DNA from: Acidobacteriota bacterium
GTDB lineage: Bacteria > Acidobacteriota > UBA890 > WLXD01
Direction of reading: 5' to 3'
DNA: 64,000 nt
Assembly: GCA_965248695.1 (NCBI GenBank)
Contig: CBDFKD010000002.1
Coordinates: 5,216,001-5,280,000 of the forward strand
Shown: positions 4,443-4,517 of the stretch, piece by piece
How positions within the stretch are numbered: the stretch's first letter is position 1
How the letters are laid out: every line of letters begins with the position of its first letter
Made by a program: the position numbers and the translations under genes
Notes under the pieces: model-generated
Database searches by the model: none
Told to the model about the DNA's origin: nothing
Seen by the model: only the letters and a program-made list of their open reading frames with translations

Positions 4443-4517
4443 GGCCTCGTGGACAACAGACGGTCAAGTCGCGGGACTGGAAATCCCGAGATCCCGGTTC
4501 GACACCGGGCGGGGCCT
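4443..4517 (+). tRNA. Class I tRNA with tRNA-Cys body but anticodon GGA (Ser)
   Basis: Acceptor GGCCTCG/CGGGGCC, U73, 3-bp D-stem GAC/GTC with A13.A22, anticodon stem CGGGA/TCCCG with loop CTGGAAA, 4-nt variable loop, T-arm CCCGG-TTCGACA-CCGGG. Confidence 0.88.

Follow-up and report, generated by a model that had tools for sequence, protein, structure and literature searches.

What does a tRNA do when its body is that of one amino acid and its anticodon that of another, and how does a gene for such an RNA come to stand where it stands? The question is raised by a 76-nt tRNA gene with the anticodon GGA, called by ARAGORN at positions 4443-4518 (+) of a 64,000-nucleotide stretch of DNA from an Acidobacteriota bacterium (GenBank assembly GCA_965248695.1, contig CBDFKD010000002.1, positions 5,216,001 to 5,280,000), the whole of which is called the window below. 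We are confident that this is an intact and structurally conserved cysteine-type tRNA gene with a GGA anticodon, and that it is cargo of an IS1-family insertion sequence (IS) element. Carriage by an IS1 element is the context that matters most here, and it was absent from the preliminary description of this DNA, which had been made from the letters of the sequence. As to what the RNA does, our best explanation, to which we give a probability of about 0.4, is that a tRNA carried by an IS1-type element is weakly charged with cysteine by the host cysteinyl-tRNA synthetase (CysRS) and allows low-level decoding of UCC and UCU as cysteine.

The Rfam tRNA model RF00005 matched positions 4443-4517 with 50.2 bits against a gathering score of 29 (E 1.4e-8, with 10 kb searched), and the alignment spans model positions 1-71 of 71, the full cloverleaf. 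The acceptor stem (GGCCUCG/CGGGGCC) is 7 bp long with one U5.G68 pair and is topped by G1-C72, G2-C71 and C3-G70, U8 is present, and the D arm consists of a 3-bp stem (GAC/GUC) plus A13.A22 and an unusually long D loop of 11 nt with GG inside. A 5-bp anticodon stem (CGGGA/UCCCG) carries the loop CUGGAAA, with the anticodon at 4479-4481 (+), followed by a variable loop of 4 nt (AGAU), a T arm with a 5-bp stem (CCCGG-UUCGACA-CCGGG) and the discriminator U73 (T at 4517), while CCA is not encoded. All 20 stem pairs are intact, and the bases relevant for translation are all kept (U8, A14, the D-loop GG, U33, A36-A37-A38 and the T-loop UUCGA). The GGC start, U73, the 3-bp D stem with A13.A22, the 4-nt variable loop and the CUGGAAA loop listed in the preliminary description were therefore all recovered when the sequence was set against the Rfam alignment. 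Thermodynamic folding alone was unremarkable (z-score −1.64), gave a slightly different D arm and was not informative. An alignment of 6 related tRNAs, in which 99.2% of cells pair, both sides have changed in 16 of 20 pairs and none of 500 shuffles scores as high, supports the standard cloverleaf; this shows intactness only, since the cloverleaf fold is common to all tRNAs. Further Rfam matches near the site, to 'sar', 'HOTTIP_3' and 'tmRNA', were all below their gathering scores.

The body is that of a cysteine tRNA. The tRNA-Cys of the host has the same GGC start, U73 and GCC-A...A-GGC D arm, and its anticodon loop, CUGCAAA, is one base away from CUGGAAA, just as had been said of the cysteine loop. 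When a covariance model built from the window tRNA as a single sequence was run over 150 other genomes of the phylum and the best 30 loci were looked at, 27 of the 29 best non-self loci were tRNA-Cys(GCA), the others being one tRNA-Glu and one irregular GGA tRNA. A second model, built from 9 family members and run over 30 relatives, ranked tRNA-Cys top in 23 of the 30, the irregular GGA tRNA top in one congener (G002), and Asp, Ala or Thr top in 5 incomplete genomes (68-77% complete), with G025 left out of the tally. On the host genome itself, the same model gave the window tRNA 81.6 bits, a second GGA tRNA 70.1, tRNA-Cys 68.8 and tRNA-Asp 63.2. Both rankings bear out the reading of a cysteine body with a serine anticodon, with the qualification that the Cys-like anticodon loop itself adds a few bits toward Cys in each of them.

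Features of a serine tRNA are confined to the anticodon: instead of the class II form there is a variable loop of only 4 nt, and the discriminator is U rather than G73, while the host has a genuine 90-nt tRNA-Ser(GGA) with a long arm and G73 at C2:1072815. Seryl-tRNA synthetase (SerRS) requires a long variable arm. With respect to tRNA-Cys, the anticodon is GGA in place of GCA, so that G34 and A36 are kept and C35 has become G. The preliminary description had allowed that the gene, taken alone, could be one point mutation, and this does not hold as its explanation: in a MAFFT comparison with all class-I tRNAs of its own genome, the window tRNA is at most ~55% identical to any of them, with Cys, Arg, Asp and Thr tied, it is present in two identical copies, and GGA recurs among its relatives. 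The second copy lies on another contig of the genome (C1:1975-2050), and a C1 stretch of 2,559 bp is 99.96% identical to window 3932-6489 by own-genome BLAST.

The tRNA is a passenger gene of a 2.8-kb IS1-family 'transporter IS' (tIS), a term defined in PMC9330008 as an IS with passenger genes, and the order within it is cargo open reading frame (ORF), tRNA, transposase and more cargo. The element starts with a left inverted repeat (IRL) at 3663..3682 (+), GGTGCTGTCC..., which agrees with the family end motif GGTAGTGTCCTAATTTG in 15 of 17 bases and with the right end in 14 of 20, and which resembles the IRL of a sister element in the congener G002 (locus L033). Next come a cargo ORF of 200 aa at 3789..4391 (+), ~30% identical to its positional counterpart in L033, and a perfect-stem hairpin at 4397..4428 (+), an inverted repeat with no U run on the + strand. 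The tRNA, a class I, Cys-like GGA tRNA by ARAGORN, Rfam and the covariance models, is separated by 51 nt from the cargo ORF upstream and by 198 nt from the transposase ORF downstream; between it and the latter, a second inverted repeat at 4596..4627 (+) forms a 3' hairpin, also conserved in L033 (alignment by eye). The gene for an IS1-family-like DDE transposase of 289 aa occupies 4716..5585 (+), with TTG at 4716 and ATG at 4749, and further cargo at 5586..6467, with small ORFs at 5838-6035 (+) and 5953-6414 (−), extends to the right inverted repeat (IRR) at 6468..6487 (−), GGTAGTGTCCCATTATGAAA read inward, an end of the family type. The IRR matches that of L033 over its first 30 nt, read by eye, and coincides with the end (6489) of the 99.96% identical C1 copy. 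Local alignment and comparison of diverged copies did not find the element ends, which were later recognised via the family end motif.

The transposase is a distant member of the family at most: transpos_IS1 of NCBIfam is its best match, though the 63.4 bits fall short of the cut-off of 100, and Pfam DDE_Tnp_IS1 just passes its own, with 24.6 bits against 24.1. Neither the cargo ORF at 3789-4391 nor the small ORFs of 5586-6467 matched any Pfam or NCBIfam family; in a protein atlas the cargo ORF fell among hypothetical clusters, and winged-helix families at 0.84-0.87 are weak leads only. The cargo at 5586-6467 has no relatives in the other transposase loci examined. A repeat boundary at ~4634-4638, visible both in own-genome BLAST and as loose ends of contigs, is the start of a transposase module common to related elements, and the cargo upstream of it differs between them. 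The L033 locus has an identical upstream hairpin, the tRNA and the downstream hairpin, with the transposase gene deleted down to its last codons, and still keeps both ends and a perfect 8-bp target duplication (cagaagtg). The window copy is probably rearranged; it adjoins a fragment of another transposase copy (3339-3416), and in the C1 copy the left part is cut by an IS3-like remnant. Just 3' of the tRNA, at window 4550-4585, a Shine-Dalgarno-like AAGGAGG is followed by an 11-codon ORF, at whose place L033 has a 14-codon ORF for a different peptide.

Is such cargo peculiar to this copy? A scan of one genome per species with an alignment of four transposases yielded 583 confirmed relatives, distributed over many phyla, of which the best 80 loci were kept. 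Their ends share the motif GGTAGTGTCCTAATTTG; paired inverted ends (at least 15 of 20 alike) surround the gene in 59 of the 80 loci, and 52 of these 59 elements are flanked by a perfect 8-bp direct repeat. The elements measure 1.8-4.6 kb, and all carry extra DNA. Nine tRNAs called by ARAGORN lie inside paired ends, and all nine are off-code: two UUA, a CUA with a long arm, a UAU, a UGG on a leucine-like long-arm body, a UAC with a long arm, one with an 8-nt loop, a Sec-like UAA and a CGC without G3:U70. Seven of the nine reach the Rfam tRNA gathering score; of the other two, the Sec-like one (L140) passes the threshold of the tRNA-Sec model and L101 passes neither. Of the nine, six are on the strand of the transposase and three on the opposite strand. 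By contrast, the 6 tRNAs found outside the ends, in 5 loci and 48-274 nt from the element end, are all ordinary (Gln, Leu, fMet, Ala, Leu and Pro). The transposase family thus habitually carries off-code tRNAs of the stop, missense and 8-nt-loop types, and the nine-of-nine count suggests selection for such cargo rather than accident. Of the 6 copies or fragments of the transposase gene in the host genome, 5 have an odd tRNA within 800 nt. For the metagenome contigs L143/L150, and for L096, L116, L132 and L081, the search for a pair of inverted repeats found none.

Two further observations concern where these elements sit and what else they hold. The 5 of 59 elements that lie 48-274 nt from an ordinary tRNA gene (L083, L103, L110, L124 and L126) exceed the expectation from tRNA density, which hints at insertion near tRNA genes. 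In the host genome, one class-I tRNA (C2:1401818-1401892; L059:3319-3393) combines C73 and an irregular anticodon arm with the serine anticodon CGA; it is flanked by an IS1-type end (L059:3596) on one side and by a truncated transposase gene on the other.

The window tRNA itself belongs to a recurrent family of class-I GGA tRNAs with U73. Its best non-self match is a 76-nt tRNA of the congener (G002:C4:81188-81263, 60.3 bits) that shares GGA, U73, A13.A22 and the 11-nt D loop, is ~61% identical, has 8 of 20 stem pairs changed yet still pairing (counted on the alignment) and lies 235 nt from a transposase homologue. The next-best match is the L033 tRNA (G002:C9:617574-617648; L033:1501-1575), whose D stem (GACA...AGUC), variable loop and flanks are as in the window, whose T loop is an odd GUCCGAA, and whose anticodon loop has 8 nt, CUAGCAAA, with GCA inside, that is, the Cys loop plus one extra A. 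A 296-nt match that includes the tRNA is 73% identical between the window and L033, with 6 stem pairs changed yet pairing, counted by eye. Since this closest relative has a GCA loop, the GGA of the window lineage may descend from GCA. A second class-I GGA tRNA in the host genome (C2:2238653-2238727; L058:2154-2228), with a GGC start, U73 and Asp-like D and T arms, stands ~300 nt inward of an IS1-type end (L058:1850); a 43%-identical transposase gene, on the other strand, is 275 nt away.

Soil metagenomes extend the family. A pattern built from the loop CUGGAAA, its GGG/CCC anticodon stem and a short variable region matched 19 metagenome contigs, 6 of which hold class-I GGA tRNAs according to ARAGORN; the other 13 were chance matches with no tRNA at the site. 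U73 is present in all 6, and is invariant in the 9 of 9 aligned family members. Those of L143, L146, L150 and L158 begin with GGC, form a CUGA...ACAG D stem with A13.A22 and encode CCA, L143 and L150 being identical, and 4 of the 6 share their short contig with a transposase homologue although they were found without reference to transposase. Because the pattern demanded GGA, these contigs show that the type is widespread and not that GGA is preferred; the unbiased count is 3 of the 4 irregular Cys-like tRNAs that came from the models (the window, G002:C4 and C2:2238653), the fourth being the 8-nt-loop copy. Taken together, GGA recurs in at least 4 clearly different sequence lineages.

Apart from its two own copies, BLAST of the tRNA against 60 relatives returned only a 44-nt stretch of a coding region, not a tRNA; blastn against phage records gave nothing at E 1e-5 and, at E 1, one 33-nt tRNA-Phe match; and E. 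coli genomes gave no match. Scans for the exact D arm or anticodon arm had 0 matches in viral contigs, as had the CUGGAAA/GGG-CCC pattern, and the first exact pattern had 0 matches in metagenomes. Near three GGA tRNAs, at varying distance, we noticed genes for a small basic protein of ~80 aa with a C-terminal motif like ...SEIARKAAEARW (L052:9724-9972, L058:4685-4948 and L146:1302-1529).

How might such an RNA act? In the explanation we favor, the tRNA would be transcribed with the cargo ORF and then cut out by host RNase P and 3'-end enzymes; no sigma-70-like promoter was found preceding the tRNA, which makes co-transcription with the cargo ORF probable. The host would add CCA to the excised tRNA, and its single CysRS would charge it poorly, as U73, G34 and A36 are right and only C35 is wrong. 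Once charged, the tRNA would read UCC and UCU as cysteine at a low level and so act as a mobile, weak Ser-to-Cys missense suppressor. Cysteine is the amino acid closest in shape to serine. The host encodes one full-length CysRS, with DALR_2 and CysS_C anticodon-binding domains, and one SerRS, and no second CysRS, second SerRS or extra synthetase was found in the island around the tRNA or in the host genome; a second PF01406 match, considered as an extra CysRS, is MetRS. CysRS relies on U73 and GCA, and some CysRS forms cysteinylate tRNA-Cys(UCA), as Mukai et al. state (Nucleic Acids Res 2017; PMC5389517). We put forward charging and decoding, as parts of this explanation, tentatively.

Several observations weigh against it. 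On the side of charging and decoding, the anticodon-binding domains of CysRS mean that the change of C35 to G should cost much activity, and the codons UCC and UCU are frequent, at 18.7 per 1000 within the island and 15.0 in the remainder of the window, so that efficient Ser-to-Cys decoding would be toxic and strong activity is unlikely. Use of UCC and UCU as private codons found no support. The two codons are neither avoided nor enriched in the island. The transposases beside GGA tRNAs have no UCC or UCU codon at two conserved Cys columns and no such column common to all four; one invariant Ser column is coded in this way in 2 of the 4, and at two single columns a Ser so coded aligns with a TGC Cys of close relatives, a weak signal. 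On the side of carriage, the window copy has no 8-bp target duplication (ggcaaacg on the left, catacgag on the right) and its ends are only 14/20 alike. On the side of the family, the closest relative has the 8-nt loop containing GCA, several GGA tRNA0 entries in the 2017 supplement, where the type has a GGC start and a Cys-type D arm, are marked 'pseudo', and His-type irregular tRNAs were charged but unused in E. coli translation in the experiments described there (PMC5389517).

The main rival is a role for the RNA without decoding, which we consider rather unlikely. The RNA would be made and would serve as a cutting signal by which RNase P and RNase Z part the message of the cargo ORF from that of the transposase, as a regulator of transposase expression, or as an uncharged decoy that binds a factor, of the host or of a competitor, recognising the GGA anticodon arm. 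The preliminary description, too, had offered a decoy, or else a trigger of the stringent response, as what an uncharged RNA might be. Such a role is in keeping with the lack of a promoter-like site, with the position of the tRNA between two conserved hairpins, the cargo ORF and the transposase ORF, and with the wrong C35, which should weaken recognition by CysRS. It is also in keeping with the irregular acidobacterial tRNAs that were charged but unused or uncharged, and with the 'regulatory noncoding RNAs' proposed for them in the text of the 2017 study (PMC5389517). Yet a cutting signal needs no set anticodon, and CUGGAAA and the universal tRNA bases are kept at ~60% identity, an argument in which 3 members are unbiased and the 6 metagenome members were found by a pattern demanding GGA. 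Moreover, cargo tRNAs stand on either strand (the six and three counted above), which is unfit for co-transcriptional punctuation in all of them.

It is improbable that the gene is a neutral hitch-hiker or a decaying copy, that is, a once-captured tRNA-Cys whose anticodon mutated from GCA to GGA. Decay would suit L033, with its GCA-containing 8-nt loop, odd T loop and lost transposase gene, as well as the 'pseudo' calls among the GGA entries of the 2017 supplement (PMC5389517) and the rarity of the type, given that, within the 29 top non-self loci from the search of 150 genomes, irregular relatives came from G002 only. It does not suit 20 of 20 intact stem pairs with 6 pairs changed yet pairing against L033 and 8 of 20 against G002:C4, nor GGA in at least 4 clearly different sequence lineages, and the nine off-code tRNAs inside related elements point to selection.

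Charging by another synthetase, such as GlyRS, ThrRS or an unrecognised enzyme, so that UCC and UCU would be read as an amino acid other than cysteine, is less probable still. Host tRNA-Gly and tRNA-Thr genes do end in U73, but the acceptor top and the A13.A22 D arm match host tRNA-Cys and not tRNA-Gly (GCG...) or tRNA-Thr (GCC.../GCU...), both covariance models rank Cys first, and no extra synthetase gene was seen. Glycine identity lies in C35-C36 and threonine identity in U36, and GGA has neither. The authors of the 2017 study, in its charging experiments, chose GlyRS and ThrRS for U73 irregular tRNAs, and one E-loop U73 tRNA in its main text was charged by neither enzyme of E. coli (PMC5389517).

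An assembly or sequencing error, with C the true base at 4480 and an ordinary tRNA-Cys the true gene, has a negligible chance of being right: the base, singled out in the preliminary description, is G without variant in contigs of 4 runs (from one sample, which may be the genome's own assembly source and is not independent support), an identical second copy is on contig C1, the body is far from host tRNA-Cys, and GGA relatives occur in independent contigs and genomes.

A wider proposal, which goes beyond weak cysteine charging of one tRNA and which we regard as doubtful, is that IS1-type transposons are natural vehicles of 'code-editing' tRNAs. Here, charging by the host CysRS would rewrite UCC and UCU as Cys; in sister elements, leucine- and serine-type tRNAs would do the like for Ala, Pro, Val, Ile and stop codons; and some transposases would need their own tRNA, so that transposition would be linked to cell-wide mistranslation, the two spreading across phyla by horizontal transfer. 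One locus fits dependence of a transposase on its own tRNA: in L083, from a Chthoniobacter metagenome-assembled genome, an in-frame TAA at 2993 falls on a tyrosine that is invariant in the transposase family, and the element (ends 1719/4098, with an 8-bp duplication) carries at 2328-2402 a tRNA with the anticodon UUA that would read this TAA.

The island in which the element lies is the first 24 kb of the window, which is lower in G+C (0.57-0.61 over its first 10 kb, compared with 0.63-0.67 farther along the window), encodes Xre-type repressors, a beta-clamp, PD-(D/E)XK nucleases, DUF1376 and a tyrosine integrase, and is a mosaic of pieces repeated elsewhere in the genome. ARAGORN calls three tRNA-like genes in the window, at 1564-1635, 2723-2809 and 4443-4518, and a search of window 1-26000 with filters off gave no further tRNA-like match. 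The gene at 2723-2809, 1.7 kb upstream, is indeed a second odd tRNA, as had been described, with a long variable arm, a leucine-like D arm, A73, the alanine anticodon UGC and 58.2 bits. It has an identical copy at C2:1586595-1586681 and lies 530 nt from the IS1-like transposase fragment 3339-3416 (−), and no IS1-type end was found around it. The gene at 1564-1635, Arg(CCU) by ARAGORN, does not reach the Rfam tRNA model, shows likeness to an acceptor/T-arm only and gives a weak tmRNA match of 18 bits.

Elsewhere in the host genome, two tRNA-Sec-like genes (C2:4678307-4678404 and C2:5559422-5559519) have an identical 3' part and a different 5' part, and there are partial duplicates of tRNA-Leu(CAA) and tRNA-fMet (C2:92021 and C2:3177552); the Sec-like pair and the partial duplicates look like scars of elements integrated into tRNA genes. 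In addition, a ~47-nt congener sequence (L052:5786-5832) matches more than 50 places of the host genome at ~94% identity.

The fidelity of the genetic code depends on a match between charging identity and anticodon, and natural tRNAs that break this rule are rare. The window tRNA is not an accident of one genome. It belongs to a family spread by a transposon, so that horizontal transfer of a 2-3 kb element can alter the decoding rules of a cell. If the window tRNA is charged with cysteine, regulated mistranslation of Ser codons as Cys could be tested on it, and it would be a natural substrate of CysRS whose new anticodon might be useful for code engineering.

Compared with canonical bacterial tRNA-Cys(GCA), the window tRNA is alike in G1-C72, G2-C71, C3-G70, U73, the 3-bp D stem with A13.A22, G34, A36, A37, A38 and the short variable loop, and differs in G35 for C35, so that it would read UCY rather than UGY (Y, C or U), and in the 11-nt D loop; the canonical gene lies beside tRNA-Gly and cysS, whereas this one is on a mobile element. 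Normanly and co-workers reportedly found in 1986 that the E. coli amber suppressor tRNA-Cys(CUA) inserts cysteine, its cysteinylation being sufficient for function in vivo. That suppressor likewise joins a tRNA-Cys body to a non-Cys anticodon, and differs in being engineered, in reading a stop codon and in having two anticodon changes where there is one here. IS1 elements as a rule have ends of the form GGnnnTG and 8-9-bp target duplications (ISfinder). The present element has a distantly IS1-like DDE transposase, shares with the IS1 family terminal inverted repeats starting GGnnnTG, and like a tIS has extra genes between its ends; 8-bp target duplications flank L033, L057 of the host genome and 52 of the 59 related elements, though not the window copy. 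The present element differs in a transposase that scores below the NCBIfam IS1 cut-off and in tRNA cargo with an identity/anticodon mismatch, and our literature search found no paper on tRNA genes as IS1-element cargo.

Streptomyces has a natural tRNA, tRNA-ProA, that likewise joins the body of one amino acid to the anticodon of another and that, with ProRSx, is proposed to bring about deliberate Pro/Ala mistranslation (J Biol Chem 2023; PMC10404621). That system brings a dedicated synthetase, whereas for the window tRNA no extra synthetase gene was found and the carrier is an IS.

The nearest relatives on record are in the 2017 study, which describes allo-tRNAs and 'other irregular tRNA sequences' of acidobacteria, near toxin-antitoxin genes, and suggests that they may be missense or nonsense suppressors or regulatory RNAs (PMC5389517), a suggestion repeated in a 2020 review (PMC7609411). 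Entries of a 'tRNA0 (7/5, U73)' type with GGA (codon UCC) and with CGC appear in its supplement sheet on 'polycistronic tRNAs' and derive from metatranscriptomes of forest and peat soils (PMC5389517), so related RNAs are transcribed in soil. These GGA entries place the tRNA type on record already. By eye, the window tRNA agrees with tRNA0 in the 7/5 cloverleaf, GGC start, GCCA...AGGC D arm, U73, short variable loop and non-cognate GGA, and both come from a soil setting, the authors attributing tRNA0 to acidobacteria (PMC5389517). In rows read by eye, the listed GGA tRNA0 example has C at 33, against U33 and an 11-nt D loop here; and tRNA0 lies in tight 'polycistrons' with tRNA1 and tRNA2, whereas the nearest odd tRNA in the window is 1.7 kb away and all other tRNA-like genes are more than 1.6 kb away. 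On mobile elements, one allo-tRNA(UAU) pseudogene is described there as overlapping a 'transposon-related protein', 'transposase' and 'IS1' occur 0 times in the supplement, and 'transposase' occurs 0 times in the main text (PMC5389517). The window tRNA is a member of this published class of irregular soil-bacterial tRNAs, and the advance lies in its IS1-transposon context and its membership, not in its kind.

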